Assembly (NCBI GenBank): GCA_002839765.1
Contig: PGYR01000003.1
Coordinates: 43,388 to 107,387, forward strand
From: Ignavibacteriae bacterium HGW-Ignavibacteriae-4
Lineage (GTDB): Bacteria; Bacteroidota; Ignavibacteria; Kapaibacteriales; UBA2268
Length of the DNA stretch: 64,000 bases
Reading direction: 5' to 3'
Shown here: positions 31,567 through 51,966 of the stretch, piece by piece
How positions within the stretch are numbered: the first letter of the stretch is position 1
Layout: each line of letters starts with the position of its first letter
The notes under the pieces: model-generated
Told to the model about the DNA's origin: nothing
Seen by the model: the letters and a program-made list of their open reading frames with translations, nothing else
The model's database searches: none
Position numbers and translations under genes: made by a program

Positions 31567-31570
31567 GATT

Positions 31571-31670: not shown

Positions 31671-31825
31671 AGAGTTGTGCATCAATGTTAATATACAACT
31701 AAAACCAATCTATAAATATATTTAATTATGGCCGAAGGTTTTTGAAATAAAAATTGTCTAATCTATCGAACCTTTAAAATTATTAAAGATTAATCTATAA
31801 AATTTATAATTAAATAAATAACAAA

Positions 31826-33511: not shown

Positions 33512-33520
33512 ATAAACAGA

Positions 33521-35218
33521 ATGAAAAACATCTACATACTTATTATTTTACTATCAAGCATTTTTAGTTTAAATGCACAATACAATAACCTCTGGATACC
33601 GGACACACTTTCAGGTACTACTTTTGATTTGGCAATAAAAGACACCTTTGCTCAAATAGTAAGTACGGGAAACCAAACCATTACTGGTGGCATCAATGGA
33701 AAGTTTTGGGGCCCTACTTTGTTTATGAACAAAGGGGATGTAGTACAAATGAACGTTACTAATAATTTAAACGATACTACAACATTGCATTGGCATGGAA
33801 TGCACCTACCGGCAGTGATGGATGGCGGACCACACCAGATAATACCACCGGGTACCGTATGGAGACCTTATTGGAAAGTATCAAATGATGCAGCCACCTA
33901 TTGGTATCATCCGCATTTGCATGAAATGACGGAAGAGCAAATGATAAAAGGAATAGGTGGTTTGATTATCATAAGAGATTCCGTTGAAAGTGCCTTACCA
34001 TTACCGAGAAAATATGGAATAGATGATATACCATTAGTGTTAACAGATAGAGATTTCAATTCAGCAAATCAGATGCCCATTCTACCTTATGGTGATAGTG
34101 CCATGGTAAATATGACATTGAGGCCACAATATACGATTCCATCTCAAGTAGTAAGGTTTAGGTTTTTAAATGGTGCCGTAGAGCGTAGTTTCAATTTAGG
34201 ATTTAGCGACAACCGGACATTTTATGTTATTACCAGTGATGGTGGTTTATTGTCGGCACCTGTGCCATTAACAAGATATACTATTCATGCTGGTGAACGA
34301 ATTGAAATTCTAGTTGACTGCAATGGACAAAGTGGTACAAGTGTAGATTTAAAAGCATATAATTCCACTCTGTCACAGACTACTCCCGGTGGTGATATAT
34401 TACCACCTAATACCATTTTTGTCAATGCGTTGGCAAGGAAAGATTTCAATCTTCTACATCTGAATATAGGTGAACAAACGACAAGTCCAATCACTGACAT
34501 TCCAAATGCTTTAAGAACAGTAACTCCAATACCAGCCGGTAATGCAAACATAACACGTAACTTAACCATTGCAGATGGACCGAATCAAGGCGCATCCGGC
34601 GTATTATTTTTGTTAAATAATAAAGTATTTGACATTAATCAACTTGATTATACTGTTCCATTAGGTAATACAGAAATATGGCAGATCACCAACTCGGGTA
34701 ATTTTGGACATCCATTCCATATACATGATGTGCAGTTCAATATTCTTTCTATAAATGGCTCTGCTCCTGACGCTACACATGCGGGTTGGAAAGATGTAGT
34801 TTATGTCCCGTCTAATACTGTGGTAAAATTCATTGCAAAGTTTGAAGATTATGCCGATTCACTTCATCCTTTTATGTTTCATTGTCATATTTCACTCCAT
34901 GAGGATGACGGAATGATGGGACAATTTGTAGTAGTAGGTAATACATCAGGAATAGGTAATATTGAAAAACCTGTACCGCAATTTTCCGTGTATCCAAATC
35001 CTGCGACTGAGGGCGTTTACATAAAAATGAATGAGGAAAATGCAGAGATATATTACATTAAAATCATGGACGAATTAGGAAGAACTATTCTGATGTTACC
35101 ACGACCTGATATTTCAAAAGGAATTGATGTAAGTAACTTTGCAAGTGGCGTCTATCATTTGATACTAACGGATGAAATAAATAAAAAAACTAATTCCAAA
35201 ACCTTTATAATAAAATAG
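33521..35218 (+). CDS. multicopper oxidase with T9SS C-terminal sorting domain, copy 2
   Basis: 565 aa tandem paralog of the previous gene with the same copper motifs (HWHGMH, FHCHISLHEDDGMMGQF) and a CTD. Confidence 0.9.
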   Translation: MKNIYILIILLSSIFSLNAQYNNLWIPDTLSGTTFDLAIKDTFAQIVSTGNQTITGGINGKFWGPTLFMNKGDVVQMNVTNNLNDTTTLHWHGMHLPAVMDGGPHQIIPPGTVWRPYWKVSNDAATYWYHPHLHEMTEEQMIKGIGGLIIIRDSVESALPLPRKYGIDDIPLVLTDRDFNSANQMPILPYGDSAMVNMTLRPQYTIPSQVVRFRFLNGAVERSFNLGFSDNRTFYVITSDGGLLSAPVPLTRYTIHAGERIEILVDCNGQSGTSVDLKAYNSTLSQTTPGGDILPPNTIFVNALARKDFNLLHLNIGEQTTSPITDIPNALRTVTPIPAGNANITRNLTIADGPNQGASGVLFLLNNKVFDINQLDYTVPLGNTEIWQITNSGNFGHPFHIHDVQFNILSINGSAPDATHAGWKDVVYVPSNTVVKFIAKFEDYADSLHPFMFHCHISLHEDDGMMGQFVVVGNTSGIGNIEKPVPQFSVYPNPATEGVYIKMNEENAEIYYIKIMDELGRTILMLPRPDISKGIDVSNFASGVYHLILTDEINKKTNSKTFIIK

Positions 35219-35224
35219 AACACT

Positions 35225-35842
35225 ATGAAAAACTTATTAAATAAAAGCATTTCCTTAATAATACTATTGCCAATTTGTATGCTCTTTTTTAGTTTCAAAC
35301 CAATTCCAACGAATTCTATCTCAGATTTTTCTTTAAAAAATGTAGACGGGAAAATGGTTTCTACAACAGATTACATGGATGCAAAAGGGTTTATTATAAT
35401 ATTTACATGCAATCATTGTCCATTTGCAAAATTGTATTCAGAACGATTGAACGACTTGAATACTAAATATTCTAAATTGAATGTACCAGTTTTTGCAATC
35501 AATTCAATGGATGAATTATTATACAAAGAGGAATCATTCGAAATGATGCAACAAAAAGCGAAAAAAGATAAATTCAATTATCCCTACTTACATGATGCTG
35601 ATCAAAAGATAGGGCAATTATTTGGTACAGAACACCCCCCCACCGCCTATGTGATATGGAAACAGGATGCAGAATGGGTCGTAAAATATACTGGATCAAT
35701 AGATGACAATGGCGAACAGCCTGATATAGCAAATCCTTTTGTCGCAAATGCCGTGGATGACCTACTTGAAGGAAAACAAGTTTCAAATCCATTTACTGAA
35801 TCTTTTGGATGCCGTATATTCTACAGAGCTCCTAAAGAATAA
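35225..35842 (+). CDS. thioredoxin-fold (redoxin/AhpC-TSA-like) protein
   Basis: 205 aa with a signal/TM segment and the CxxC motif FTCNHCPFAK. Confidence 0.7.
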   Translation: MKNLLNKSISLIILLPICMLFFSFKPIPTNSISDFSLKNVDGKMVSTTDYMDAKGFIIIFTCNHCPFAKLYSERLNDLNTKYSKLNVPVFAINSMDELLYKEESFEMMQQKAKKDKFNYPYLHDADQKIGQLFGTEHPPTAYVIWKQDAEWVVKYTGSIDDNGEQPDIANPFVANAVDDLLEGKQVSNPFTESFGCRIFYRAPKE

Positions 35843-35866
35843 TTATAATTAAATTTCAGTTTTGGT

Positions 35867-35926
35867 ACATATATACTAATATTTGAAAAGACCTCGGACA
35901 TTGTTCGAGGTTTTTTGTATATTTGG
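35867..35926 (+). repeat. cassette junction module copy 6 (short form)
   Basis: ACATATATACTAATATTTGAAAAGACCTCGGACATTGTTCGAGGTTTTTTGTATATTTGG. The TATATTTG box at 35918-35925 follows the T-tract directly. Confidence 0.9.
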
Positions 35927-35994
35927 GAAGTTAGGTGTAGCTAAACGAACGAACTGGATTCCTAATACTTTAATTTAATTTATTAGATTTACAA

Positions 35995-36663
35995 ATGAAA
36001 CAAATTCACAGATTTACATTTATACTATTAATTTTTGTTGCTTGTATATCTTGTAGCAAAGGAAAAGATGGCTCTAATGAAAAAGAGTATATCTTTTTTC
36101 TTCACAATAAATTCTTAGAGGAAAACCCCGAAAGTACATTTTCAAAAGAATACAATGTAAAAGTAGAATACAATGAAATTTTGGAATCATTTAGAAAAGA
36201 TGGGTTTATAGTATTTAGTGAAAAAAGACAACCTCAAACCATCGTAATAGATTATGCTAAAAAAGTCGTTTTACAAATTGATAGTTTAATATTAAGCGGA
36301 ATTAAGCCCGAACAAATTACGGTTATTGGAACTTCTAAAGGAGGATACATAGCACAATTTGTATCAACTTATGCACAGAATCCTGAATTAAATTTTGTAT
36401 TTATTGGTTGTTTTCAAAAATCAGATATTGAAGAAATTCGTGAGATAAATTTTTGTGGCAATATCCTTACAATTTACGACAAATCTGACTATTACGGTGT
36501 ATCGGCAATTGATAGGAAAGAAACATCAAAGTTAAAGGTTAGTCGATTTAAAGAAATTGAACTTAACACAGGTTTAAGACATGGTTTTTTGTATGTTGCC
36601 TCTGATAAATGGCTAAAACCATGTAAAATGTGGGCAAAAAGAAACTATGAATTGGCAGAGTAA
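35995..36663 (+). CDS. alpha/beta-hydrolase-like lipoprotein
   Basis: 222 aa. Lipobox (VACISCS) and GxSxG elbow (GTSKGG). Confidence 0.6.
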   Translation: MKQIHRFTFILLIFVACISCSKGKDGSNEKEYIFFLHNKFLEENPESTFSKEYNVKVEYNEILESFRKDGFIVFSEKRQPQTIVIDYAKKVVLQIDSLILSGIKPEQITVIGTSKGGYIAQFVSTYAQNPELNFVFIGCFQKSDIEEIREINFCGNILTIYDKSDYYGVSAIDRKETSKLKVSRFKEIELNTGLRHGFLYVASDKWLKPCKMWAKRNYELAE

Positions 36664-36700
36664 TTTGTAATTAAGCAAGGCAAGGTTTAGTTTGGTTTTT

Positions 36701-36768
36701 ATTAAATAACTTCGGGCCTTGTTCGAGTTTTTTTGTGAGGTCTAGTATGAGGTTTTTCGTATATTTGG
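36701..36768 (+). repeat. cassette junction module copy 7 (degenerate hairpin)
   Basis: ATTAAATAACTTCGGGCCTTGTTCGAGTTTTTTTGTGAGGTCTAGTATGAGGTTTTTCGTATATTTGG. TATATTTG lies at 36760-36767. Confidence 0.8.
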
Positions 36769-36820
36769 TGTAATAACTAAATGAAAAGAGTTGTATTGGA
36801 AACAGTGGTTAAGAGAAGAA

Positions 36821-37162
36821 ATGATGATAGATTATAACGGAAAGATATTCAGACCCATTGTGAATTCAGAAAATGGTGAAACATCTAGCGAAACTGTTTT
36901 TAAATATAATCAGACGGGAAACATTCTGACATCTGAATATTCTGGTGGTAAGATAAAAATGGGGCATCTAATAGGAATTGTAGATGAAAATGGGAATATA
37001 GATATGCGTTACCATCAAGTAAATAATAGAAACGAAATTATGACTGGGATTTGTAAATCAAGACCTGAATTTCTTGAAAATGGAAAAATCCGACTTCACG
37101 AAAGTTGGGAATGGACATCAGGAGACAAATCGAAAGGGCAATCCATAATAGAAGAACAATAA
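36821..37162 (+). CDS. small conserved hypothetical protein
   Basis: About 113 aa from MMIDYNGKIFRPIVNSENGETS. From memory, it resembles a small family in Bacteroidota with no established function. The upstream TTG start in the track is unlikely. Confidence 0.6.
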   Translation: MMIDYNGKIFRPIVNSENGETSSETVFKYNQTGNILTSEYSGGKIKMGHLIGIVDENGNIDMRYHQVNNRNEIMTGICKSRPEFLENGKIRLHESWEWTSGDKSKGQSIIEEQ

Positions 37163-37180
37163 AAGCTAAAACCTAATAAT

Positions 37181-37310
37181 AAGCTGTGTAGTGACTTATA
37201 TCTGTAGCCGTGGGATGACATAGTAAATTACTGCCCCGTAGGCTGTATATTCAATCCTATTGAGCTACCTGGACTATTCGGACACTTAGTGTCCTCTGAG
37301 TGACATAATT
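37181..37310 (+). repeat. multi-hairpin repeat family B, copy 2
   Basis: Aligns with 31437-31566 and contains GGACAC-TTA-GTGTCC. Confidence 0.85.
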
Positions 37311-37330
37311 TCCTCCCTCCAATCCCCCAG

Positions 37331-37352
37331 CTCTGACATAGATTATTCTTTA
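37331..37352 (+). repeat. junction module, partial left arm only
   Basis: CTCTGACATAGATTATTCTTTA matches the left part of the module (CTCTAACAACATAGATTATATTTT). No hairpin follows. Confidence 0.6.
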
Positions 37353-37493
37353 TTGAGATTATTCGGTTAGAGAGAACATATTAGAATCTTATAACAAACC
37401 AAAAAGTATACAAGATTCGAATTTATGTATAAATCATTTGTATTCATTACACTTAGTTTTGTATAATTCTTTTCAATAAATAGGAAAATAAAG

Positions 37494-38447
37494 ATGAATA
37501 CTAATAATTATGGCAAAGATGGATGGACACCAGAGTTGATGAACTCTCAGAGTGGTAAAACATTCGTTATAACTGGAACTACTAGTGGTACTGGATTCGA
37601 AGCAGCTAGAATACTATTATCGAAGGGGGCTAAAGTTGTAATGCTAAACAGAAATGTTAAAAAATCAGAAGAAACAATTAAAACGTTACAACAACAACTT
37701 GGTAATAAAATAGACGTTTCTTATATTCAGATGGATTTAGCAGAACAAGCATCTGTAAAGAATGCGGCTGAAGAAGTACTTAAATGTATTACTCACATCG
37801 ATGCTCTTATTTGTAATGCTGCTATAGCACAAGTACCAACTCAAAACATAACTAGAGATGGTTGGGAGAGTCAAATAGGAGTGAATCACTTCGGGCATTT
37901 TACTTTGCAAGCATTATTATATCCTATTATAGAAAAATCTAAAGGTCGAATAGTAACAGTAGGATCTATGGGGTACAATATGGGGATTAAAACAATCAAA
38001 TTTGACGATTTGAATTGGGATAAAGATTATACAGGGAACAATGCTTATAGCCAAAGTAAATTAGCTCAGATTATGTCTGTTTATGAATTACAGAATCGAT
38101 TGGAGAAAGTTGGTAAGTCTGATGTTAAAATATATGCATGTCACCCAGGTTCATCTAGAACTTCTCTAATCGATACTAGCGGTAGTTTAATGATGAGATT
38201 AATGTTCGGATTGATGAAATTGTCTCCCTTTACACAATCAGCTGAAAAAGGTGCGTACCCCCAATTGATGTGCGCTACTGAAGAGAAACTTGATCAAAAA
38301 GGATTTTATGGTCCAACAGGAAGAAGTTACTGGACTGGCCCAGTAGGAGCACATCACTTAGAACTTCATGCTAAAGATAAAACTGTATCTAAAAGATTAT
38401 GGGATTTATCTGAAAAAGAAACAGGTTTAAAGTGGAATTTTAATTAA
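37494..38447 (+). CDS. short-chain dehydrogenase/reductase family oxidoreductase
   Basis: 317 aa. TGTTSGTG (TGxxxGxG), NAA and YSQSK (YxxxK) motifs. Confidence 0.85.
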   Translation: MNTNNYGKDGWTPELMNSQSGKTFVITGTTSGTGFEAARILLSKGAKVVMLNRNVKKSEETIKTLQQQLGNKIDVSYIQMDLAEQASVKNAAEEVLKCITHIDALICNAAIAQVPTQNITRDGWESQIGVNHFGHFTLQALLYPIIEKSKGRIVTVGSMGYNMGIKTIKFDDLNWDKDYTGNNAYSQSKLAQIMSVYELQNRLEKVGKSDVKIYACHPGSSRTSLIDTSGSLMMRLMFGLMKLSPFTQSAEKGAYPQLMCATEEKLDQKGFYGPTGRSYWTGPVGAHHLELHAKDKTVSKRLWDLSEKETGLKWNFN

Positions 38448-38476
38448 TTTGTTGAATAAATAAAAGAAAAGAAAAT

Positions 38477-38986
38477 ATGGAAATATTAAAAATAGCAACT
38501 GATTGGGCAAAAGCAGAAGTCTTTTCAACTCAATTTTTTATACTGTTTGGTTTTATATTTGTTTTGTCAAGCGTTGGGTTTTGGCAACTAGGGAAAACTG
38601 ATATTGCTAAGGCATATATAACACCTACTCTTGTAGCAGGTATATTACTTTTGATAATAGGATTCGGATTATTTTTCACAAATAAATCGAGAGTTAAAGA
38701 ATTCGAAATAGCATACACAAATGATGCTTCAGCTTTTGTTGAATCTGAACTCAAAAGAGTGGAAAGTACTCTGAATGAATATCAAACTATCGTTTTTAAG
38801 ATTATACCATTTATAATTACCGTAGCTGCCTTACTAATTATATTTTTAGATACTCCGACTTGGAGAGCAATAAGTATCACTACGATTGCAATGCTTGTCA
38901 TAATTTTATTGATAGACGGTACGGCCCATTCTAGAATAGAAGCCTATAATAAACAATTGTTAGTTATTGAAAAAAAAGACAGATAA
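38477..38986 (+). CDS. hypothetical membrane protein
   Basis: 169 aa with about 4 hydrophobic helices and no recognisable motif. Confidence 0.6.
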   Translation: MEILKIATDWAKAEVFSTQFFILFGFIFVLSSVGFWQLGKTDIAKAYITPTLVAGILLLIIGFGLFFTNKSRVKEFEIAYTNDASAFVESELKRVESTLNEYQTIVFKIIPFIITVAALLIIFLDTPTWRAISITTIAMLVIILLIDGTAHSRIEAYNKQLLVIEKKDR

Positions 38987-38987
38987 T

Positions 38988-39899
38988 ATGAAACACTTCA
39001 AGACTTTATCAGAATATTTCGAGTACATGGAACTACCAAGGCCTGAGCATCCTATGCTAAGTGTAATGTCAGCGTACGGTGATAGTTTTCTTACATGCCC
39101 TAAAGAAAGTTCACCTCCTATTTCAAATGATTGCTATTCCATAAGTCTCAAAAAGATTATCAAAGGTAATCTGAATTATGGAAGAACAAAATATGATTTT
39201 ACAAATGGAGCATTGATTTTTTTGGCTCCCAGACAAGTTGTGCAATGGGACAGTAGTGTAATTTTTGAACAAAAAGGTTTTTCAATTAACTTTCATGAAG
39301 ATTTTCTCAAAGGGACTGAGTTAACTCGACAAATCAACAAATATGGTTTTTTCTCTTACACAGCAAATGAGGCCTTACATCTATCACCCAAAGAAGAGAA
39401 ACTATTAGAATCAATTGTTCAGAATATAGAAATAGAATACCATAACAACCAAGATGAATTTAGTAAAGATATTATTATTTCTCAGCTAAGCACCCTTTTA
39501 AAATATGCTAACCGATTTTACGAAAGACAATTTATTAACCGTAAAGAGCTATCAAATGATTTACTAGAGCAATTCAATAAGCAACTTGAAATCTATTTTG
39601 AATCAGGTCAATTAGAACAAAATGGAATTCCTAGTATAGAACAATTGGCTAACAAAATGTCTGTTTCTCAGCGATATCTAAGTGACACATTAAAGTTAGA
39701 AACTGGTAAGACCACAACAGAACACCTGCAACTATATTTGATTGATATCGCGAAAGATATATTGCTAAAGCCAAATAAAAGTATATCTGAAGTTGCTTAT
39801 GAATTAGGTTTCGATTACCCTCAATATTTTTCAAGATTATTCAAAAAGAAAGAAGGTCTAAGTCCTTCAGAATACAGAGAACAGTATAAAATGAATTGA
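38988..39899 (+). CDS. AraC-family transcriptional regulator
   Basis: C-terminal double HTH (SIEQLANKMSVSQRYLSDTLK...EVAYELGFDYPQYFSRLFKKKEGLSPSEYR). The ATG at 38988 is preferred because it begins just after the previous stop. Confidence 0.85.
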   Translation: MKHFKTLSEYFEYMELPRPEHPMLSVMSAYGDSFLTCPKESSPPISNDCYSISLKKIIKGNLNYGRTKYDFTNGALIFLAPRQVVQWDSSVIFEQKGFSINFHEDFLKGTELTRQINKYGFFSYTANEALHLSPKEEKLLESIVQNIEIEYHNNQDEFSKDIIISQLSTLLKYANRFYERQFINRKELSNDLLEQFNKQLEIYFESGQLEQNGIPSIEQLANKMSVSQRYLSDTLKLETGKTTTEHLQLYLIDIAKDILLKPNKSISEVAYELGFDYPQYFSRLFKKKEGLSPSEYREQYKMN

Positions 39900-39926
39900 T
39901 TATACAAATCAGAATAAGCTAGGAAG

Positions 39927-39990
39927 ACATTATTGAATTAAATCTATTTTGTGAAGACCTCGGACTATATTCGAGGTTTTTTGTGTGTGT
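39927..39990 (+). repeat. cassette junction module copy 9
   Basis: ACATTATTGAATTAAATCTATTTTGTGAAGACCTCGGACTATATTCGAGGTTTTTTGTGTGTGT. A TATTTTTG box follows at 40015-40022. Confidence 0.85.
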
Positions 39991-40121
39991 TTAGTATTTT
40001 TAAATGAATTGTCGTATTTTTGGATTATAATAAGTAATGACTAGATATATGATAATTCGTATAGTTAGAAAGTTAGCTGCAACCCTAACTAACCTCAAAT
40101 CACCATAGACTAACTTTGACA

Positions 40122-42644
40122 ATGCCTGCAAATAATTTCGACATATTAGGTTTGACAAACGAGCAGGTAATTCTTGCAAGGGAAAGATTTGGACAAAATA
40201 AATTAGACTATAAAAAAGAAAACAACTTCTTAGACACCCTAAAACGCATTGGCAAAGAACCAATGACAATATTATTATTGGTAGCAGCTTCCATCTATTT
40301 TATCAGCGGCGAAACTGGGGATGGAGCATTTCTTGTTGTTGCTATCATATTCATCACCTCAATTTCATTATATCAGGATTCTAGAAGCAGAAATGCTTTA
40401 GAAAGACTGAAGGACTTTTCACAGCCCTATTGTAAAGTTATCCGCAATGGAAACATACAAGAAATAAAAAGCAAAGATTTGGTATATGGTGACAGTCTGA
40501 TTGTAGAAGAGGGAACATTAATTACAGCAGACGGCATAATTGTTCATTCAAATGATTTCTCAGTAAACGAATCGATACTCACTGGTGAATCATTTGCTGT
40601 TTTTAAAGATAAGAGCAAAGAAGATAATTATATCTATAGTGGCACTACTGTCGCCAGTGGTTTAGCTATTGCCACAATAACAGATATTGGTAACGAAACT
40701 AAATTAGGTAGAATTGGAACTAGTTTAGAAAGTATCAGTGAAGAAAAAACACCATTAGAAATTCAAATTGCAAATTTCGTAAAGAAGATGGCAATAGCAG
40801 GAGTTGTAGTTTTTGTAATTGTTTGGGCAATCAATTATTGGCATTCTCAGAATTTATTGAATAGCTTGTTACAGTCGCTTACATTGGCCATGAGTATTTT
40901 ACCTGAAGAAATTCCAGTTGCTTTTACAACTTTTATGGCTTTGGGTGCATGGCGTTTAATGAAAATGGGTATTGTGGTAAAACAAATGAAAACTGTTGAA
41001 ACATTAGGTAGTGCCACTGTTATTTGTACCGATAAGACAGGAACAATTACAGAAAATAAAATGAGTTTGGTAAAACTTTTTTTGCTATCTTCAAATAAAA
41101 TATCTCATACCAACGACCAATTAACAGAGGATGAAAAAGAACTTATAGAATTGGGAATGTGGGCAAGCGAACCTATTCCGTTTGACCCAATGGAAGTAGC
41201 ACTTCATCAAACCTATAAAGAAATGGTACATTCTGATGAACGACCCAATTACAAACTTATACATGAATACCCATTAGGTGGCAAACCACCAATGATGACA
41301 CATATATTTGAGGACGATAAAGGCAACCGAATTATAGCAGCAAAAGGTGCACCCGAAAAATTGATGAATGTTTCAAACCTAACAGAAACCGAAAAACAAC
41401 AAATAAATGAGGCTATTCAGCTTTTAGCAATTGATGGTTATAGAGTGCTGGGAGTAGGTGAATCAAACTTTACAAGTGACAATTACCCTGTAAAACAACA
41501 AGATTTGCCATTTAAATTTAAAGGCATTATTGCCTTTTATGACCCACCAAAAAAGAACATTAAAAAAGTATTAGAAGATTTTTATAACGCTGGTATCGAT
41601 ATAAAAATTATAACAGGTGATAATGCGGCTACTACCACAGCCATTGCAAAACAAATTGGATTTAGGGGTTATGAAAATAGTATTACAGGTGATCAGCTGA
41701 TGAAATTAGATGAGGCTGCTTTACAAACATGTGTTGCGAATACTGCTATTTTTACCCGTATGTTTCCCGAAGCTAAATTAAAAATCATTAATGCATTAAA
41801 ATCCAACAATCAAATTGTAGCAATGACGGGCGATGGCGTGAATGACGGACCAGCCTTAAAAGCTGCACACATTGGCATTGCTATGGGTAAAAAAGGGACG
41901 GAAATAGCTAAACAAGCTGCCTCATTGATTTTATTAGAAGATGATCTATCTAAAATGGTTGATGCAATAGCAATGGGAAGAAAAATATATACTAACCTAA
42001 AAAAAGCAATACAATACATTATATCTATACACATCCCAATAATCCTAACTGTATTTATTCCTTTAGCTTTAGGATGGATTTACCCCAACATTTTTTCTCC
42101 AATCCATATTATCTTTTTAGAACTAATAATGGGACCAACTTGTTCTATTATTTACGAAAATGAACCAATAGAAAAGAATACAATGTTACGGAAACCGAAG
42201 GCATTGACAACTACATTTTTTGATTGGAAAGAACTATCCATAAGTATAGTACAAGGTTTAATGATAACGGTTGGGACTTTATTCGTTTACCAATATTCAG
42301 TTATTAATGGTTACGACGAGGCACTCGTAAGGACAATGACTTTTACAGTTTTGATAGCAGCAAATATTTTCCTAACTTTAGTAAACCGCTCATTTTATTA
42401 TTCTATATTAACTACTTTGAAGTATAAGAACAATATGGTTTTATTTATAATTTTTATAACAATCGCAATTGTAGGACTAATCATTTATGTAAGCCCATTG
42501 ACAACTTTTTTTAATTTTGAGACCTTGAATTTAGCTCAATTATTAATATGTATTTCCATTGGTTTTATTACAGTAATTTGGTTTGAAATTACAAAACTAA
42601 TTAAAAGGGTAAAAACCAATACAGGGCTAAAGGTAAACAGCTAA
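40122..42644 (+). CDS. cation-transporting P-type ATPase (type II, Ca2+/Mg2+-like)
   Basis: About 840 aa. Motifs TGES, phosphorylation site CTDKTGTITENKM, and hinge MTGDGVNDGPALK. Has an N-terminal cation-ATPase-N pattern. No CPC or heavy-metal-binding motif, so not a Cu/Zn P1B pump. Confidence 0.9.
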   Translation: MPANNFDILGLTNEQVILARERFGQNKLDYKKENNFLDTLKRIGKEPMTILLLVAASIYFISGETGDGAFLVVAIIFITSISLYQDSRSRNALERLKDFSQPYCKVIRNGNIQEIKSKDLVYGDSLIVEEGTLITADGIIVHSNDFSVNESILTGESFAVFKDKSKEDNYIYSGTTVASGLAIATITDIGNETKLGRIGTSLESISEEKTPLEIQIANFVKKMAIAGVVVFVIVWAINYWHSQNLLNSLLQSLTLAMSILPEEIPVAFTTFMALGAWRLMKMGIVVKQMKTVETLGSATVICTDKTGTITENKMSLVKLFLLSSNKISHTNDQLTEDEKELIELGMWASEPIPFDPMEVALHQTYKEMVHSDERPNYKLIHEYPLGGKPPMMTHIFEDDKGNRIIAAKGAPEKLMNVSNLTETEKQQINEAIQLLAIDGYRVLGVGESNFTSDNYPVKQQDLPFKFKGIIAFYDPPKKNIKKVLEDFYNAGIDIKIITGDNAATTTAIAKQIGFRGYENSITGDQLMKLDEAALQTCVANTAIFTRMFPEAKLKIINALKSNNQIVAMTGDGVNDGPALKAAHIGIAMGKKGTEIAKQAASLILLEDDLSKMVDAIAMGRKIYTNLKKAIQYIISIHIPIILTVFIPLALGWIYPNIFSPIHIIFLELIMGPTCSIIYENEPIEKNTMLRKPKALTTTFFDWKELSISIVQGLMITVGTLFVYQYSVINGYDEALVRTMTFTVLIAANIFLTLVNRSFYYSILTTLKYKNNMVLFIIFITIAIVGLIIYVSPLTTFFNFETLNLAQLLICISIGFITVIWFEITKLIKRVKTNTGLKVNS

Positions 42645-42782
42645 CTCCTAAAACTCTCTCTATGGATATGTTGCTCAGATCCTCCTTTATCGAAATTTAA
42701 AATACGAGTCGAAATTTATTTCAACATCGATGGTTGCTGTTACAAGTCAAAGTACTTCGCTCAGGTATCATAATTTGAGACC

Positions 42783-42943
42783 CTACAAACTCACCCTCGG
42801 CAGCGATAGCTTATACTTTATCGAGATGATTCGGATAGCTAAAATAAAAAGTGTTGGAATAACTTGGAGTAGCCATGGAGGTGCGTAGAGATACCACTGT
42901 ACCACAATTTGAATCCAACAGCTATGACAGCAGAAGCATATAT
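42783..42943 (-). pseudogene. 3' fragment of a TRIC/UPF0126-family gene (frameshifted, 5'-truncated)
   Basis: Aligns by eye with the 3' end of the intact gene at 46369-46530. Compare AAACTCACCCTCGGCAGCGATAGCTTATACTTTATCGAGATGATTCGGATAGC with AAACTCACCCTCGGAAGTGATAGCTTATACTTAATCGATATTATTCGAATAGC. One frame gives PTLFILAIRIISIKYKLSLPRVSL* against the intact PTVFIFAIRIISIKYKLSLPRVSL*. The upstream part lies in another frame. Confidence 0.85.
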
Positions 42944-42947
42944 TTTA

Positions 42948-42989
42948 TTCAAATATACTGAAGCAAGAGCAACTGCATACACAGACTAA
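42948..42989 (+). pseudogene. duplicated 3' end (~40 nt) of sdhB
   Basis: AATATACTGAAGCAAGAGCAACTGCATACACAGACTAAGC compared with the sdhB end AATATGCAAAAGCAAGAGCAACTGCATACAGAGACTAAGC (27103-27144). It is followed by a junction module, as at sdhB. Confidence 0.85.
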
Positions 42990-43080
42990 GCTCTAACAAC
43001 ATAGATTATATTTTTAAAAAAACCTCGGATATTGTTCGAGGTTTTTTTGTGGGTTTAGAGTGAGGATTTTCTTATATTTG
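42990..43080 (+). repeat. cassette junction module copy 10
   Basis: CTCTAACAACATAGATTATATTTTTAAAAAAACCTCGGATATTGTTCGAGGTTTTTTTGTGGGTTTAGAGTGAGGATTTTCTTATATTTG. This is the copy most similar to copy 1. Confidence 0.9.
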
Positions 43081-43122
43081 AGTGGTTATAAAAACATTTG
43101 ACAAAAAAATAAACAAACAACA

Positions 43123-43668
43123 ATGAGAAATAAACTAATTTTTTTAATATTCCCCTTTTTAGGTTTTTTGATTAGCTGTGGTAGTGGACAACTTAAAACA
43201 ACCGAAATGAATAATGATGAAGCCATCATAATCGCTCGTGCATTTATAAAAAATAATGGAGAAAATATAAATACGAAGTGGAATTTTCTCTGGAATGAAA
43301 GACTATGGGGGAATAATGCTGTTTGGGTTGAAAAAGACGGATATGTATTTATGAAATTACCAAAAGGAAAACATTTTATCTCCCTACTTCAATACAATGA
43401 ATATCAAAAAAATATTCCTGACAATTATTTAACTGTAGATTTAGAACCCAACAAAATATATTATATTGGAGATTTGACTTTTAACTGGAATATCAATAAG
43501 AATGATGTTGCAAGAACTGGTATTGTCGGAGCCGTTTTGGACGCAGAAAAAAATGATAATAAAATTCAAGTTGACCTAACTGACAATTATGAAAACATGG
43601 TCAAGGTATTCAACGAAAAATATGGGAATTCAAAACCGGTGGAAAAGCAATTAATCCGAATTGAATAA
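43123..43668 (+). CDS. hypothetical lipoprotein
   Basis: 181 aa with a lipobox (FLISCGS) and no recognisable domain. Confidence 0.6.
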   Translation: MRNKLIFLIFPFLGFLISCGSGQLKTTEMNNDEAIIIARAFIKNNGENINTKWNFLWNERLWGNNAVWVEKDGYVFMKLPKGKHFISLLQYNEYQKNIPDNYLTVDLEPNKIYYIGDLTFNWNINKNDVARTGIVGAVLDAEKNDNKIQVDLTDNYENMVKVFNEKYGNSKPVEKQLIRIE

Positions 43669-43685
43669 ATAAAAGATCGTTTAAA

Positions 43686-43768
43686 GTGAATATCTCTTAA
43701 AAAGACCTCGGACAATGTTCGAGGTTTTTTTGTGGGGAACAAATAGGAATTAGTTTTCGTATAAGTCG
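43686..43768 (+). repeat. cassette junction module copy 11
   Basis: GTGAATATCTCTTAAAAAGACCTCGGACAATGTTCGAGGTTTTTTTGTGGGGAACAAATAGGAATTAGTTTTCGTATAAG. Confidence 0.9.
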
Positions 43769-43813
43769 ATAGTGAAGTCCATTTTAGTAAACTAAAACAA
43801 ATATAGAACCTAC

Positions 43814-44434
43814 ATGAAAAAGAAAATCATTATTATCAGTATTAGTATTGCATTGATGGCAATTGTCTATTTGGCTATTAATTGGAAATCATTGTTGCTA
43901 AATATGGCAGGTTTTCAACAACCTAAAATTGAAAATACTGAAACTATTAAATCTTGGGATGGTTTAAAAACAAAGCAAGATATGCTTTTAGTCGCATCCA
44001 CAAAAGCAAATTTCAATTACCTTCAAGAAAATATCGGAGTACCAGGGATAATGGTGTTTAACAAAGAAGGTTATCTAATTATAAGTAATAGAGGTGAAGG
44101 GTGTCAAATCACTGCAAGGGATAAACTAAAAGATCTGGGGAAAAAAGAATTTTCTAAGTCTAACAGTAAGGATATTGGATTTTCAAATATTAATGACTTT
44201 TTAGACCGGGTTTCAAATATTAATAAAGCTGAATTGAAGAATGAAATTGGTTATGATTATACTGTGGTATATACATGGGCAAAATATTTACCAGAAAAAT
44301 CAATTGAAATGATGGAAGCAGTTAACTCTGGATTAAAAAGAAATAAAGCAAAAGTATTACTACTTTCTCTAAATCTTGATTATATTGATAAATGGACTAG
44401 TGGTCAAGTAGGTGATAAAATAGATTTAGACTGA
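43814..44434 (+). CDS. hypothetical membrane-anchored protein
   Basis: 206 aa with an N-terminal TM anchor and no recognisable motif. Confidence 0.6.
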   Translation: MKKKIIIISISIALMAIVYLAINWKSLLLNMAGFQQPKIENTETIKSWDGLKTKQDMLLVASTKANFNYLQENIGVPGIMVFNKEGYLIISNRGEGCQITARDKLKDLGKKEFSKSNSKDIGFSNINDFLDRVSNINKAELKNEIGYDYTVVYTWAKYLPEKSIEMMEAVNSGLKRNKAKVLLLSLNLDYIDKWTSGQVGDKIDLD

Positions 44435-44461
44435 TGTAAGCTAGAGCCACTGCATAAAGTA

Positions 44462-44540
44462 AACTTTATTTTTTAAAAGACCTCGGACAATGTTCGAGGT
44501 TTTTTTGTGGGGGATTTGAAAGGAATTTTGTTACTTTGTT
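44462..44540 (+). repeat. cassette junction module copy 12
   Basis: AACTTTATTTTTTAAAAGACCTCGGACAATGTTCGAGGTTTTTTTGTGGGGGATTTGAAAGGAATTTTGTTACTTTGTTG. Confidence 0.9.
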
Positions 44541-44581
44541 GGTTTAACAGTTATTTAATTACATCAAAAGAACCAAACAAT

Positions 44582-44986
44582 ATGGCACAAAAAGAAATTA
44601 ACTTAAGTACTGAAGTTTCTAACTTATTAGATGAAATAAACCACCCATTTAGAAATGAGATTGAAATTTTGCGACTTTGTATATTGAATGCAAATAACGA
44701 TTTGAAAGAGAATATAAAATGGAATGGTCCAAACTATTGTTTTGACAATGAAGACAGAATCACAATGAGAGTTCAACCACCTACTAAACAAGTGCAATTG
44801 ATTTTTCATATAGGAGCTAAAAAGCAGGAACAACCGAAGAATAAACTAATTGAAAATAAAAGCAAACTGTTAGTTTGGAAAGAAAATGACAGAGCCATTA
44901 TAACTTTTAAAAGTTTGAATGATATCGAAGGTGCAATAGAAGAATTGTCAATAATTGTAAATGAATGGATAAGTAACACGAAGTAA
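44582..44986 (+). CDS. DUF1801-like (YdhG-like) small protein
   Basis: About 134 aa from MAQKEINL. The pattern HP....I..LR..I......L.E.IKWN.PNY resembles DUF1801. The longer track ORF would start inside the repeat. Confidence 0.55.
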   Translation: MAQKEINLSTEVSNLLDEINHPFRNEIEILRLCILNANNDLKENIKWNGPNYCFDNEDRITMRVQPPTKQVQLIFHIGAKKQEQPKNKLIENKSKLLVWKENDRAIITFKSLNDIEGAIEELSIIVNEWISNTK

Positions 44987-45153
44987 GGGGTAAATTTGTT
45001 CATATAATTGATGTTGAAGGTAAAAAAGTTGAACTATGGGAAGAGATATATTAAAGCGAAAGTACAACCTAATTTTTTTTTGCACTTCAATAAAATTTTC
45101 TTGTCTATTTTTGTCATAAATATTATTTTTGTCAACAATAATATCTGAAAATT

Positions 45154-45660
45154 ATGCCAACATTAATTAACCCTAATTCTTTGATTTATCAAACGGATAA
45201 TACGGCTCTTGATGAATTCAAATTGAAAACATTAGTACCTAGATTGGGAAAGTATTGCAATTCCAACCAAATGATTTTCGATATAAGACTACTCGAACCA
45301 GGTAAATATTCATTCCCTTATCACTTTCATAGAAATGCTGAAGAACTAATTATGATCATCTCAGGTTCACTTACTTTGAGAACTGAAGATGGATTGAAAA
45401 TAATTAAATCTGGGGAGTTAGTCTTCTTCGAGATAGGACCATCAGGAGCTCATCAGTTCTATAATCATGAGCAAACTTCTTGTATATATCTAGATATAAA
45501 GACCACTCAAGGGATTGATGTTGTTGAGTACCCCGATTCTGGGAAAGTAAATATAACGCCATTAAACATGATATATGAGATTGGGTCTCAAGTTAATTAT
45601 AATCAAGGAGAATCAAATATTAGTTCTATATGGGAAAATTTAAAAAAAGAACACAGCTAG
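45154..45660 (+). CDS. cupin-domain protein
   Basis: 168 aa. Cupin motifs (PYHFHRNAEELIMIISG ... GPSGAHQFYN). Confidence 0.7.
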   Translation: MPTLINPNSLIYQTDNTALDEFKLKTLVPRLGKYCNSNQMIFDIRLLEPGKYSFPYHFHRNAEELIMIISGSLTLRTEDGLKIIKSGELVFFEIGPSGAHQFYNHEQTSCIYLDIKTTQGIDVVEYPDSGKVNITPLNMIYEIGSQVNYNQGESNISSIWENLKKEHS

Positions 45661-45748
45661 AATAAGCTACGAAAAATGGTTAAACTCAATTTGTTTTTCT
45701 GAACATAATTTAAATAATATGTAATACTTATTTGGAAATAGATCCGAA

Positions 45749-46309
45749 ATGAAAAATATAGTTTTTGCTTTACTTTTTATATCTACTTTTTTAAACGTTT
45801 TAGCACAAAAGAATCCGGAAGATAGTAATTTTGAAGTGGAGATAGATCCTATCGCTTTTGCATTGCAAGGATATTCATTTCATGGTATATATCTTAATTC
45901 CAGAATTAGGACTGACCTTGGTGTTTTTGGGATTATGCAGCCTGTTGGTTTTAATGGTAATGAAGGTTTCCAAATAAAAACTCAAGGAGTAGGCGTCAAA
46001 GTAAATTACTTGCTAACTGAAAATGAAACTTGGTTTACGGGGATTGGATTGGGATATTCTACTAATCGAATAAACTTGCTTGAAAGTAGTGAGGTACAAA
46101 ACCAGAAAATTATCGGTATTGGTGCTCACCTAGGTTATCGTTGGTTTATGTTCGAAAATGCTTCAAATGCTTTACGTAACCTATATTTAGCACCATGGTT
46201 TAGCATTGACTATAATATACCAATTAATGACGTATCATTCGAGACAAAGAATTATAATCAACAAATTATTTCATTTTTTCCAACGATTCATATAGGTTAT
46301 AAAATTTAG
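45749..46309 (+). CDS. small outer-membrane beta-barrel protein (hypothetical)
   Basis: 186 aa. Signal peptide, alternating hydrophobic beta-strand pattern and a C-terminal aromatic region (IHIGYKI). Confidence 0.55.
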   Translation: MKNIVFALLFISTFLNVLAQKNPEDSNFEVEIDPIAFALQGYSFHGIYLNSRIRTDLGVFGIMQPVGFNGNEGFQIKTQGVGVKVNYLLTENETWFTGIGLGYSTNRINLLESSEVQNQKIIGIGAHLGYRWFMFENASNALRNLYLAPWFSIDYNIPINDVSFETKNYNQQIISFFPTIHIGYKI

Positions 46310-46368: not shown

Positions 46369-46974
46369 TTATAAACTCACCCTCGGAAGTGATAGCTTAT
46401 ACTTAATCGATATTATTCGAATAGCGAATATGAAGACAGTCGGTACTCCATAAAGCAACCAAGTAGGTGCACCTATATATTGCAGTGATATATAGATGAA
46501 CGCACCAGCTAGACACGCGGATGCATATATCTCCTTTCTGAAAACCAGTGGTATCTGGTTAGTCATCATATCTCTGATTATCCCACCGAAGACAGCCGTT
46601 ACTAATCCGAAGAAAATAGCTATGAATGGGCTCACCCCAAAGTCAATTGCCTTTTGTGTACCCAATATAGCCGACAAGCTAATACCAAGAGTATCGAATA
46701 GGAAGAAAGTCTGCTTTAGTATCAGAATTCTTTTTTTGAGTAGGAAAGTAAATCCCAAACCTGCCATTATAACTACTACGAACCAAGGATTTTCCATCCA
46801 GAATAGTGGGTGACACCCGAGAAGCAAATCACGGACAGTTCCACCGCCTACGGCAGTAACAAAGGTAACAAATGAAATACCGAACATATCGTACTTCTTT
46901 TGGATAGACGATAGAGCAGCACTAATAGAGAAAACGAATACGCTAATCAAAGCGAGAATAGATAATAATTCCAT
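46369..46974 (-). CDS. trimeric intracellular cation channel (TRIC/UPF0126, YadS-like) family membrane protein
   Basis: 201 aa. Two internal repeats, each with the glycine motif (GGGTVRDLLLG and FGGIIRDMM). Confidence 0.8.
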   Translation of the reverse strand: MELLSILALISVFVFSISAALSSIQKKYDMFGISFVTFVTAVGGGTVRDLLLGCHPLFWMENPWFVVVIMAGLGFTFLLKKRILILKQTFFLFDTLGISLSAILGTQKAIDFGVSPFIAIFFGLVTAVFGGIIRDMMTNQIPLVFRKEIYASACLAGAFIYISLQYIGAPTWLLYGVPTVFIFAIRIISIKYKLSLPRVSL

Positions 46975-48597: not shown

Positions 48598-48673
48598 GAG
48601 CTTAAATAAGGATGATTCTTACTCTCCCATCTCCCCCATTTGCTTCTTCCCTATTTCTTAATTAGATTTGTAT

Positions 48674-48763
48674 TCCCGTTGGAGGTGCTGACCAAATAGT
48701 TTGGTCGGCTGAGATAAAACTCCTTGCACCTGATCAGGTTAGTACCTGCGTAGGAAAACGGTG
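48674..48763 (+). promoter_or_regulatory. TPP (THI-box) riboswitch
   Basis: CCGTTGGAGGTGCTGACC...GGTCGGCTGAGATAAAACTCCTTGCACCTGATCAGGTTAGTACCTGCGTAGGAAAACGG. It shows the conserved GGTGC, CTGAGA, ACCTGATC and GCGTAGGAA blocks and P1 pairing CCGTT/AACGG. It lies about 95 nt upstream of a TonB-dependent receptor. Confidence 0.9.
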
Positions 48764-48857
48764 GAATATACCCACGTTTACAATCTACTAAGCATTTTGC
48801 TCATCAGGGCTCTGACGGATTTAATTAATTTATTAATAAATCTTTGTAGGGCTAATT

Positions 48858-51221
48858 ATGTTAAAAAAGCTAATTTTACTTGGCTTCGTCTGTACCGTTT
48901 TCAACCTTAGGGCGGACGATAAAGACACCATCAGAACGTATCAAGCACCGTCTATCACGGTGACTTCGACTAAGGCAAAGGAAAGGCAGTCGCCAGTTCC
49001 TTTCTCCGAAATAACCGAGGCAGATATTAAGAAGACCACTTCAAATATCGATTTGCCGAATCTTCTACAATCTATGCCGTCTATTTATACTTTCACAGAA
49101 AATGGAAATGGTATTGGCTATACTAATCTGCGGTTGCGTGGATTCGATCAAAGACGTATTTCTGTACTAGTGAATGGAATTCCACAAAACGACCCAGAAG
49201 ACCACAATGTTTATTTCATCAATCTATCTGATTTGCAAGAGAGTTTGGGAGAGGTACAAGTACAGCGTGGTGCTGGGCTAGCTAACTACGGAGCGGCAGC
49301 CATAGCTGGGAGCATTAACCTAACTACTACAGCATTCATCAACAATCCGGGTATTCGACTTTACGCTGGGAATGGGTTCCAAGAGTTCAGCGGCAGCGAT
49401 ATAATCAAGACTAATACGAACAAATTAAAGTTAGAGTATTCTTCAGGTTTGGTGAATGAGAAATATGCTTTCTACGGGAAAATGAGCCAAATAAACTCCG
49501 AAGGATATAGAGACCAATCTTTTGCATATCTCAATAGCTACTTTCTAACAGCTATTAGGTTTGACGAGAAACTAAAAACTCAGGTTAATATCTATGGAAG
49601 TTCACAAAGAGACGGGCTATCTTATATAGGTTTACCAAAGGATTACATTACTGACCCAGTTAAGCGTAGAGAGAACTACAGCTATTGGGAACACGGAAAA
49701 GATGGACGAGAATTCGCATGGGGTGCTACTACTAGAGCTCAAGAAATAGAAGAATTTAGCTCGCCACATATAGAGTTACTAAACGATTGGTACATAACTG
49801 ATAATCTGACTTTCAAATCATCTCTCTACTATTTCGAGGGTAACGGATACTTCGATTATTCTGGTACTGATTATACTGACTCATCGAGCTATGGATTTGA
49901 TAAGGTTTACCCTGGTGCTACTAGTCCAGGCAATCCGTTAATAAGAGCGTGGGTAGGCAATAAACAAGGTGGATGGATTCCTCGTATAGTTTGGGAGACA
50001 GAGGGTAACGTACTGACAACTGGTGCCGAGATTCGTATTCATCAATCTGACCATTGGGGCAAATTACAGTTTGCCGAGAATCTACCAGAGGGATATGACC
50101 CAGATTACAAATTCTACGAATATGATGGTTTTAGAGATATATTCTCAGCATTCGCTCGTAACCAATATCAAATAAATGAAGATTTGATGGTAAGTGGTGA
50201 AACGCAACTAGTATATCACTCATATCGCATCGCTAATGACAAATTCGCTGGTATAGTTAACCCATACACCAATACGGAAGGAGTAGCTACTACGGGCAGT
50301 AATAACCTATTCAACGTCGAGTATTTATTCTTGAACCCGAGAGTGGGTATTAACTGGAATTACAGTCCTGAGCAAAACGTATATCTTTCGGCAGCATATA
50401 CACAAAGAGAGCCGCGAATGAAGAACCTATATAATGCTAGTGAGGCATGGTCAGGTGCTAAACCACAGTTCAGAAGAGTACCAATCGGCAATGAAGCTTT
50501 CGGGTATGATTTCTCTAGTCCTTTTGTAAAGCCAGAGAAGATGTTGAACATAGAAACTGGATGGAATTATATCTCAGAGACTTATAATTTATCAGGGAAT
50601 ATCTATGTGATGGATTTGCGTGATGAGTTAGTAAAAAGCGGTCAGTTAGACCAGTTCGGTGCACCAATAGATGGAAATGCAGAGCAGACTTTGCACTATG
50701 GAATAGAACTCGAAGCTGGTGTAAAAGCATTTGACAATAGCAATGGACGATTGGATTTATATGCTAACGGAACTTTCAGCCAGAATAAAATCGTAACTTA
50801 TAATTTCGCATTGAAAGACGGAACAACAATCGCTTTAGACGGTAACAGAATAGCGGGTTTCCCTGATATAATGAGTGCTTTCACTCTAAACTATAAGATA
50901 AGTGAATTTAATTTCCTGCTATCAGCTAACTATGTTGGTAGTTTTGCAACTGATAATTTTGGTGATTTACTAACTACTAACGCAAGTGTAAAAACTAATC
51001 TTGGTGGTGGCTACTATGCAGACAATAAGGTAGATTCTTACTACTTTATGAATGCAAATCTATCATACAACTTTCGTGATTTTATGGGTACACAGGGGAT
51101 AAGAGTTCATTTACAGATTAATAACTTGACGAATAATCTATATGCAGCAGCTGGCGAAGGTGGTCAGTTCTTCGGTGGTGCAGAGCGTAACTTCTTCATA
51201 GGAGCGGAGCTTTCGTTCTAA
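48858..51221 (+). CDS. TonB-dependent outer-membrane receptor (probable thiamine/thiamine-precursor uptake)
   Basis: 787 aa. Signal peptide, plug domain (NLRLRGFDQRRISVLVNGIPQNDPEDH) and a C-terminal beta-barrel ending in F. The substrate is inferred from the upstream TPP riboswitch. Confidence 0.85.
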   Translation: MLKKLILLGFVCTVFNLRADDKDTIRTYQAPSITVTSTKAKERQSPVPFSEITEADIKKTTSNIDLPNLLQSMPSIYTFTENGNGIGYTNLRLRGFDQRRISVLVNGIPQNDPEDHNVYFINLSDLQESLGEVQVQRGAGLANYGAAAIAGSINLTTTAFINNPGIRLYAGNGFQEFSGSDIIKTNTNKLKLEYSSGLVNEKYAFYGKMSQINSEGYRDQSFAYLNSYFLTAIRFDEKLKTQVNIYGSSQRDGLSYIGLPKDYITDPVKRRENYSYWEHGKDGREFAWGATTRAQEIEEFSSPHIELLNDWYITDNLTFKSSLYYFEGNGYFDYSGTDYTDSSSYGFDKVYPGATSPGNPLIRAWVGNKQGGWIPRIVWETEGNVLTTGAEIRIHQSDHWGKLQFAENLPEGYDPDYKFYEYDGFRDIFSAFARNQYQINEDLMVSGETQLVYHSYRIANDKFAGIVNPYTNTEGVATTGSNNLFNVEYLFLNPRVGINWNYSPEQNVYLSAAYTQREPRMKNLYNASEAWSGAKPQFRRVPIGNEAFGYDFSSPFVKPEKMLNIETGWNYISETYNLSGNIYVMDLRDELVKSGQLDQFGAPIDGNAEQTLHYGIELEAGVKAFDNSNGRLDLYANGTFSQNKIVTYNFALKDGTTIALDGNRIAGFPDIMSAFTLNYKISEFNFLLSANYVGSFATDNFGDLLTTNASVKTNLGGGYYADNKVDSYYFMNANLSYNFRDFMGTQGIRVHLQINNLTNNLYAAAGEGGQFFGGAERNFFIGAELSF

Positions 51222-51943: not shown

Positions 51944-51966
51944 GTGATTTGAGGAGTGAAAGGATA

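Follow-up and report, generated by a model that had tools for sequence, protein, structure and literature searches.

Campbell-type insertion and tandem duplication both leave a novel joint in which one end of a segment is fused to the other, and such joints are textbook recombination. [quoted passage not shown] Sequential displacement arrays, in turn, have been attributed to homology-facilitated illegitimate recombination (PMC5361080). There is little documentation of how such hotspots acquire additional genes and do not just exchange them. Here we analyze a 64-kb stretch of DNA (the window) in which a variable interval lies between the core genes sdhB and TRIC, and in which a joint at 42.8-43.1 kb fuses a fragment of one of these genes to a fragment of the other.

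The logic of this locus appears, by analogy, closest to that of the sequential displacement arrays of Rhs C-terminal regions and Vibrio T6SS effector-immunity genes (PMC5361080). As in the Rhs and Vibrio cholerae T6SS arrays, a conserved upstream gene is the homologous anchor, entry is beside this anchor with older material shifted downstream and no integrase, and displaced units retain a short copy of the anchor 3' end. Unlike in those arrays, the anchor here is a housekeeping respiratory gene, the cargo is miscellaneous instead of toxin/immunity pairs, the anchor remnant has a recurrent fixed start, and remnants of the far-side gene (TRIC) are also kept, with whole fillings concatenated. tRNA-linked islands and tycheposons (bioRxiv 10.1101/2020.12.28.424599) share with our locus units separated by partial 3' copies of the target gene, newcomers that push older units inward, and tandem junctions. 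Our locus differs in that its target codes for a protein, its repeat carries a terminator along with a promoter-like motif, its joint contains a piece of the opposite flanking gene, and the hotspots examined hold no integrase or integrase remnant.

The integrase-less hotspots of Oliveira et al. (PMC5635113) likewise consist of a variable interval between two conserved core genes, with fast turnover among relatives and no mobility genes; however, a double crossover merely replaces the content of such an interval, whereas the scars at the locus described here stem from additions, for which a single crossover or an illegitimate joint is required. Integron arrays resemble it in their one-directional single-gene cassettes with a conserved, imperfectly palindromic element between them. 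Yet here each unit has its own terminator and promoter-like motif, whereas attC sites mostly lack a promoter, and the element comes from the 3' end of the neighbouring gene and differs between clades. With no adjacent intI and no R''/R' core sites or attC cores (RYYYAAC / GTTRRRY) flanking the hairpin, as read directly from the module sequences, the array is not an integron. Finally, the joint resembles the product of Campbell insertion or tandem duplication in that the right end of a segment is fused to its left end between flanking direct repeats of ~130 nt, but the two copies are entirely different in content and the repeats are just 87% identical.

Results

The sdhB-TRIC interval is a hotspot with lineage-specific fillings

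The left core gene, sdhB (26390-27142, plus strand), is a 250-aa ORF for the iron-sulfur subunit of succinate dehydrogenase/fumarate reductase (PDB homologue 9lay_B, E 6e-106), and the right core gene is an intact TRIC-family gene (46369-46974, minus strand; Pfam PF03458). We scanned species-representative genomes with the TRIC protein and obtained eight related loci, all in metagenome-assembled genomes labelled Candidatus Kapaibacterium, Ignavibacteriota, Chlorobiota or Bacteroidota, and a metagenome scan with the hairpin pattern described below added L014 and L022/L024. The conserved order is sdhC, sdhA, sdhB, a variable filling, TRIC (convergent) and a VTT-domain gene, and sdhCAB-filling-TRIC synteny was found in L004, L007, L008, L009, L014 and L022/L024. 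The content of the filling differs per lineage, as does its size (L004, 4.8 kb; L007, 3.4 kb; L008, 1.9 kb; L009, 3.8 kb). The window has a filling of 19.2 kb, with a G+C content below that of the flanks and with ~20 unrelated accessory genes, every one on the sdhB strand. In Candidatus Kapaibacterium, horizontal gene transfer thus has a hotspot between sdhB and TRIC.

The sequences on both sides of the joint (27.2-42.8 kb and 43.1-46.3 kb) have zero genes in common. The original prediction took them for two alternative fillings of the same hotspot, now in tandem, and loci that carry the right-hand array type only, or left-array genes beside an intact TRIC, do exist. The near-identical loci L004 and L032 carry the right-hand array type only (sdhB, module, two unrelated genes, module, DUF1801, cupin, g45749, TRIC), and colinearity between L004 and the window holds up to 27230 and resumes at 44467. 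L011 carries the left-array genes SDR, g38477 and AraC; behind them lie a module, a single further gene and, 1.5 kb away, an intact TRIC. The tandem arrangement is thereby supported, but 27.1-42.8 kb is not a single filling, as shown below. SDR, g38477 and AraC are 81-89% identical at the amino acid level between the window and L011, and their divergence is about that of the core flanks, so some of the left array may have descended vertically instead of arriving with the TRIC fragment at the joint. The joint itself was absent from all other related hotspot loci examined.

The joint fuses the TRIC 3' end to the sdhB 3' end

On its left side, the joint is preceded by a 5'-truncated 3' fragment of a TRIC-family gene, hereafter t' (42783-42944, minus strand). 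We performed tblastn with the intact TRIC protein against the whole window, and aa 154-201 aligned to 42932-42786 on the minus strand with 65% identity (E 1.2e-13); the homology continues in another frame (IYASAVIAVGF, aa ~147-158) to ~42944, giving a reading of ~55 codons with one frameshift and zero stop codons. The part of t' nearest the joint is TRIC-like by itself (E 1e-5 to 1.5e-4). On the right side lies a plus-strand element (42948-43086) composed of s', which is the last 42 nt of sdhB including the stop codon (42948-42989, 37/42 identical), followed by a hairpin and a promoter-like motif; it is copy 10 of the module characterized below and the right copy of a direct repeat. blastn aligned 42948-43080 to 27101-27229, behind the real sdhB, with 87.2% identity over 133 nt (E 3.5e-38), and the longest exact match between the two is 21 nt. 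These alignments bear out the frameshifted TRIC copy proposed at 42783-42943, the sdhB tail with its stop codon, and the ~130-nt direct repeat predicted at 27103-27230 versus 42948-43080, with coordinates right to a few bases. The further claim that copy 10 most resembles copy 1 holds for the top score, but copy 4 (29861-29933) is nearer over a 73-nt core (93%).

TRIC homology stops at 42944 and sdhB homology begins at 42948, leaving a joint (42945-42947) of 0-3 nt whose origin is uncertain. At this position sdhB reads AATTTCGAAT and the plus strand of TRIC reads CCTTTCTGAA; the TTTC(N)GAA in both parents is compatible with microhomology-mediated joining. The joint thus links the distal end of the variable interval (TRIC 3') to its proximal end (sdhB 3'), which is the novel-joint topology that had been proposed. 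It had also been described as joining internal points of the two genes, and here the topology stands but the sdhB point is not arbitrary, as it recurs at nt 712-716. Of all joints in the window array, the one at 42.9 kb is the best preserved; it is a genuine recombination scar, without function.

The joint is authentic, and its loss is probably infrequent

The repeats in the region and the metagenomic source of the assembly raise the alternative that the joint is an assembly chimera, fusing the hotspot versions of two strains. The same ATPase, joint and next gene are spanned by two further assemblies from other samples and assemblers: L002 (JGI 3300038334, a 195-kb scaffold) and L003 (ENA ERZ27239242, a 154-kb MEGAHIT contig). 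Over the 14.3 kb aligned around the joint, L002 and L003 differ from the window by one SNP, and the N-runs of L002 are distant from the joint. Moreover, exact repeats are no longer than 21 nt, well under assembler k-mer sizes, which disfavors mis-assembly through repeats, and t' and s' both differ from the intact genes, so that mis-joined intact TRIC and sdhB loci cannot yield the sequence of the joint. A chimeric assembly, named as a possible artefact in the original prediction, is contradicted by the identical junction in L002 and L003 and is very unlikely.

We also searched for contigs encoding g43123, g27259 or g45749, and these showed either the full arrangement or a different, L004-type lineage and nothing else; no deletion or one-array variant of this strain was found among them. 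The 15.8 kb between the direct repeats had been suggested to be losable by repeat recombination. Such a loss is possible but probably infrequent, since the repeats agree at 87% of positions and share no exact stretch longer than 21 nt, and no deletion variant appeared among the flanking-cassette contigs.

The TRIC fragment is chimeric and partly foreign-looking

Comparison of t' with TRIC alleles revealed two unequal parts. The 57 nt by the stop codon (42783-42839) are L005-like, with 54/57 positions identical to the L005 TRIC, whereas the 105 nt by the joint (42840-42944) are ~60% identical to any sampled TRIC allele, and the break in identity to L005 within t' is pronounced (Fisher p 9e-7). 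The joint-proximal part has p-distances of 0.39-0.46 to the resident clade and 0.35-0.38 to distant clades, as large as between-clade TRIC distances. A parallel gradient is seen in s', which matches sdhB at 13/17 positions beside the joint and then at 24/25. These alignments show t' to be a chimera whose joint-proximal 105 nt look like an allele of an unsampled TRIC lineage, and this part does not look like a decayed copy of the resident TRIC. Such gradients in t' and s' are expected if both fragments later served as crossover sites for replacement.

A search with the full TRIC protein returned five close alleles, P0001-P0005, and none of these matched the joint-proximal part better than ~62%. 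The contexts of the TRIC alleles in L025 and L029 revealed no donor, and a protein search with a 56-aa reconstruction of t' gave no match, with no indexed words shared. We also considered the ATPase beside t' as a donor tracer and rejected it: it is 82-88% identical across many Bacteroidota families and is uninformative, as its best match sits in an unrelated context.

These data bear on the alternative of an in-place tandem duplication whose limits are the sdhB tail and the TRIC 3' end and which arose through unequal sister-chromosome exchange at the TTTC/GAA microhomology, followed by complete turnover of content in one or both copies through later replacement recombination. The topology would be identical, replacement through crossovers in t' and s' would also give the freshness gradients, and the SDR-to-AraC genes look vertically inherited relative to L011. 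However, a resident relic should be nearest its own clade, and the distances given above point the other way; t' has acquired a single frameshift and no stop codon despite ~40% divergence; the arrays have no genes in common; and the joint, missing from every other related hotspot locus examined, would have had to be lost many times independently. We consider an in-place duplication unlikely, and a recent one is specifically argued against by the chimeric nature of t'. The original prediction of either tandem duplication or Campbell insertion holds in its topology, while recent duplication of the resident segment is disfavored by the t' chimera and by the lack of shared genes. The identical topology would also result by a third route, in which linear DNA enters through homology-facilitated illegitimate recombination.

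The left array contains older joints of the same kind

We annotated the array with Pfam and with nhmmer profile matches to the module, and found that it divides into successive fillings. The first, F1 (27235-31566, plus strand), carries g27259, a YhcG-type nuclease, g29343, DJ-1/PfpI and ACT genes, with module copies at 27895, 29165 and 29861. Its end is formed by rep2a (31437-31566), a 130-nt copy of the TRIC-downstream flank. The second, F2 (31675-37400, plus strand), carries two multicopper oxidases, an AhpC-like gene, g35995 and an avidin-like gene, with module copies at 35866 and 36702; a second 130-nt element, rep2b (37182-37311), lies near its end, and F2 terminates in an old TRIC 3' remnant, t'' (37338-37400). 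The third, F3 (37401-42782, plus strand), holds SDR, g38477, AraC, module copy 8 (39910-40023) and a P-type Ca2+-ATPase. The fourth, F4 (43123-46309, plus strand), lies beyond the 42.9-kb joint and holds g43123, a module at 43695, g43814, a module at 44438, DUF1801, cupin and g45749, being colinear with L004 from 44467 rightwards.

The rep2 element is native flank from just downstream of TRIC: its 3' part abuts the intact TRIC stop codon in L024, and its 5' part lies 60-80 nt from the TRIC stop in L006 and L007. At ~31.57 kb, rep2a is directly followed by the last ~8 nt of sdhB (AAGACTAA) and module copy 5 (31570-31674, plus strand), forming an older joint of TRIC flank to sdhB module. At ~37.34-37.40 kb, rep2b is followed by t'', in which the last ~20 codons of TRIC survive in decayed form (blastn E 9e-4 in the window); t'' in turn is joined to the sequence upstream of SDR. 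An orthologous joint is present in L011, where t'' is better preserved (L011rc 5874-5925, E 2e-5). In L005, a rep2 fragment is joined to sdhB nt 714. The left array (27.1-42.8 kb) thus holds at least two older end-to-start joints. Given these further joints, and as each filling ends in TRIC-side sequence, the window array comprises no fewer than four stacked fillings. The breakpoints on the TRIC side vary, falling at codon ~147, at codon ~180, at the stop codon and inside the flank.

An sdhB-derived module separates the cassettes

The full module consists of an sdhB tail, a terminator-like hairpin and the motif TATATTTG. Copy 1, which is the left copy of the direct repeat (27101-27234, plus strand; nhmmer 130 bits), comprises the last 42 nt of sdhB, the hairpin AAAAAGACCTCGG..TTCGAGGTTTTTT and this motif. 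The motif fits TAnnTTTG, the Bacteroidetes -7 consensus, which every module carries, and its promoter function is presumed from this fit. Hairpins of the module family were called terminator-like (e.g., 29901-29933 and 35886-35916), and their arms, which form 12-13-bp inverted repeats, are conserved while the loops are variable. The nhmmer profile identified 11 module copies in the window, spanning 27101 to 44531, and every copy, here and in relatives, lies between sdhB and TRIC on the sdhB strand. The profile search found no modules elsewhere in the 64-kb window or in the flanks of relatives, and a 1.2-Mb Kapabacteria contig had three exact matches to the hairpin pattern, 3/3 in the hotspot. 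A dispersed repeat (REP/MITE) or a mobile terminator element was ruled out, the copies being confined to the hotspot, and no module was detected in viral or extrachromosomal contigs. Rfam at gathering thresholds found no known RNA family in the module or in rep2. The sole Rfam match is a TPP riboswitch elsewhere.

Traces of the sdhB tail, of various lengths, occur in 8/10 internal window modules, indicating that the module family derives from the sdhB 3' end; such remnants were also found in modules of L005, L006, L011, L014 and L024. The cassette g43814 and a cassette of L014 are each placed between identical hairpins. In a distant clade, L009 equals L008 plus one cassette (an ABC1 kinase) behind sdhB, and beside this cassette lies a second copy of the terminator hairpin native to that clade, which is a different one. 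Copying of the sdhB terminator is hence a general feature that tracks local homology and not one specific site.

The sdhB breakpoint recurs at nt 712-716

Internal copies of the sdhB tail that differ in their left neighbour start at nt 712-716 in at least three independent cases. Those at nt 712-714 are preceded by the TRIC fragment of the window, by the rep2 fragment of L005 and by the stop codon of a 187-aa ORF of L005, and a fourth left neighbour, the upstream region of a large minus-strand gene (L006, L011, L014 and L024), meets sdhB at ~nt 715. No significant sdhB homology was found upstream of nt 712-716 in the internal copies. An upstream extension in L005 was hinted at by gapped alignment and rejected, as shuffle tests were not significant. 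There are no longer tails, and several copies are shorter, starting at nt ~724-745. The boundary coincides with a TTCGAA palindrome (nt 712-717); an origin from a restriction site was considered and discarded, TTCGAA being neither avoided nor rare in the window (31 found vs 21 expected). The clustering at nt 712-716 is the main observation that misfits random illegitimate joining.

One way to account for so fixed a boundary is a dedicated site-specific system encoded elsewhere (integron-like or Xer-like), for which the module hairpin or the sdhB TTCGAA would be the attachment site. The TRIC/sdhB joint would then be an aberrant excision using a TRIC pseudo-site, and TRIC reads TTTCTGAA at the joint position. 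The conserved hairpin arms with variable loops, and the identical hairpins around g43814 and the L014 cassette, would also fit such a system. Against it, no integrase or transposase was detected among 40 window ORFs or 5 scanned cargo ORFs of relatives; the shorter tails make the boundary graded and not precise; the distant clade duplicates a different hairpin; TTCGAA is common; and no integron-type core sites lie beside the hairpin. A system of this kind seems quite improbable.

Taken further, the ~135-nt module might be the working recombination site of a Kapabacteria cassette system that is integrase-free or uses an unknown recombinase, an analogue of integrons with joint-bearing circles cycling in and out of the locus. 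The flanking core-gene fragments (TRIC and sdhB) would act as attachment sites, and a defined site of cleavage or processing would lie at sdhB nt 712-716. We regard this reading as doubtful.

Discussion

The reading that we favor, with a probability of roughly 55%, is the repeated addition of foreign hotspot segments, each by one homologous and one non-homologous exchange, whether of Campbell type or through homology-facilitated illegitimate recombination. Under this model, a whole hotspot filling from another lineage would have been added in tandem to the resident filling instead of replacing it, and would have reached from the last ~42 nt of sdhB, with the terminator/promoter module, into the 3' end of TRIC. 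The homologous exchange would have taken place where donor and recipient are alike, in the sdhB tail/module or at the TRIC 3' end, and the non-homologous joint would have formed at the short TTTC/GAA microhomology. The incoming DNA might have been either a circularized segment entering by a single crossover or a linear molecule captured by homology-facilitated illegitimate recombination. Repeated several times, such additions would produce the stack of at least four fillings. Later double-crossover replacements apparently used both gene fragments as landing pads, which would leave each fragment fresh far from the joint and old or foreign beside it. The anatomy of the locus, its recurrence in independent assemblies, the alternative fillings of relatives, the further joints, the chimeric t' and the lack of a nearby recombinase are direct observations; how the DNA recombined, where it came from and in which order are what we infer from these patterns.

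Import is favored over in-place duplication by the unrelated arrays, the foreign-looking core of t' and the lack of this joint in the further related hotspots that were examined. Several observations fit the import model less well: the sdhB breakpoint recurs in at least three independent joints, no donor lineage was found for the joint-proximal TRIC allele, the SDR-to-AraC genes have diverged from L011 to about the same extent as the core flanks, and neither a circular form nor a deletion product (the latter sought among the flanking-cassette contigs) nor another intermediate was observed.

The locus preserves legible scars of additive events, in which fragments of both flanking core genes were fused, and this several times. 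The value of the joint at 42.9 kb lies in being a record of additive, apparently recombinase-independent island growth. If the recurrent sdhB breakpoint is enzymatic, it would point to an undescribed targeting mechanism. The locus offers a concrete, PCR-testable model of integrase-independent island growth in a little-studied, uncultured lineage.

Cassettes bracketed by matching hairpins

Each full module of the hotspot combines an sdhB tail, a terminator-like hairpin and a promoter-like motif. The hairpins of the two modules bracketing cassette g43814 (43697-43730 and 44467-44500) are identical, including the loop ACAATG, whereas the hairpin loops vary among the other module copies. One cassette in the related locus L014 is likewise bracketed by identical hairpins (10319 and 11124). 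Together, these two cassettes suggest that the target hairpin is duplicated upon cassette insertion. In the distant Kapabacteria clade of loci L008 and L009, the terminator hairpin has a different, clade-specific sequence (CCCTCAC..GTGAGGG). There, a single ABC1 kinase cassette lies behind sdhB in L009, between two hairpin copies (reverse complement, 6262-6307 and 8090-8135), and L008, without this cassette, carries a single copy (reverse complement, 8150-8260).

Gene content of the hotspot and its surroundings

The cassette ORF at 27259-27918 (plus strand) reads into a diverged sdhB-tail remnant that supplies its stop codon, and ends in ...EYRY* compared with ...AYRD* in sdhB. Two tandem paralogous multicopper oxidases (31826-33511 and 33521-35218, plus strand), both carrying a C-terminal T9SS sorting domain, are followed by an AhpC/thioredoxin-like gene. 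Adjoining the truncated TRIC fragment is a P-type Ca2+-ATPase gene (40122-42644, plus strand), whose product has 82-88% amino acid identity to proteins found across many different Bacteroidota families (matches in Saprospiraceae, Chitinophagaceae, Polaribacter, Algoriphagus and Flavobacterium); judged by these matches, the gene looks like a case of wide, recent transfer.

The roughly 130-nt element rep2 contains three small hairpins, GCCACGTAGTGGC, CCCCGTAGGGG and GGACACTTCGTGTCC, and occurs at 31437-31566 and 37182-37311, as well as in the related loci L024 (6329-6390) and L006 (reverse complement, 7082-7110). Its native location in relatives is the flank downstream of TRIC; candidate roles are a TRIC 3' UTR or a REP-like element.

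Outside the hotspot, a TPP riboswitch (48671-48773, plus strand; Rfam RF00059, 70.5 bits) precedes a TonB-dependent receptor gene (48858-51221). The window also holds two pairs of neighbouring paralogues, one encoding small unknown proteins (51365-51943 and 51949-52587; ~81% nucleotide identity over ~385 nt) and the other SNF-family sodium symporters (19921-21501 and 21980-23578).

Short-array and long-array lineages

The short-array lineage, with only the right-hand type of filling (L004-type), was assembled as L032 from ENA ERZ27247358; the window's own lineage, with the long array, was assembled as L003 and L034 from ENA ERZ27239242. The accession numbers of these samples lie close together, a hint that the two lineages may coexist.
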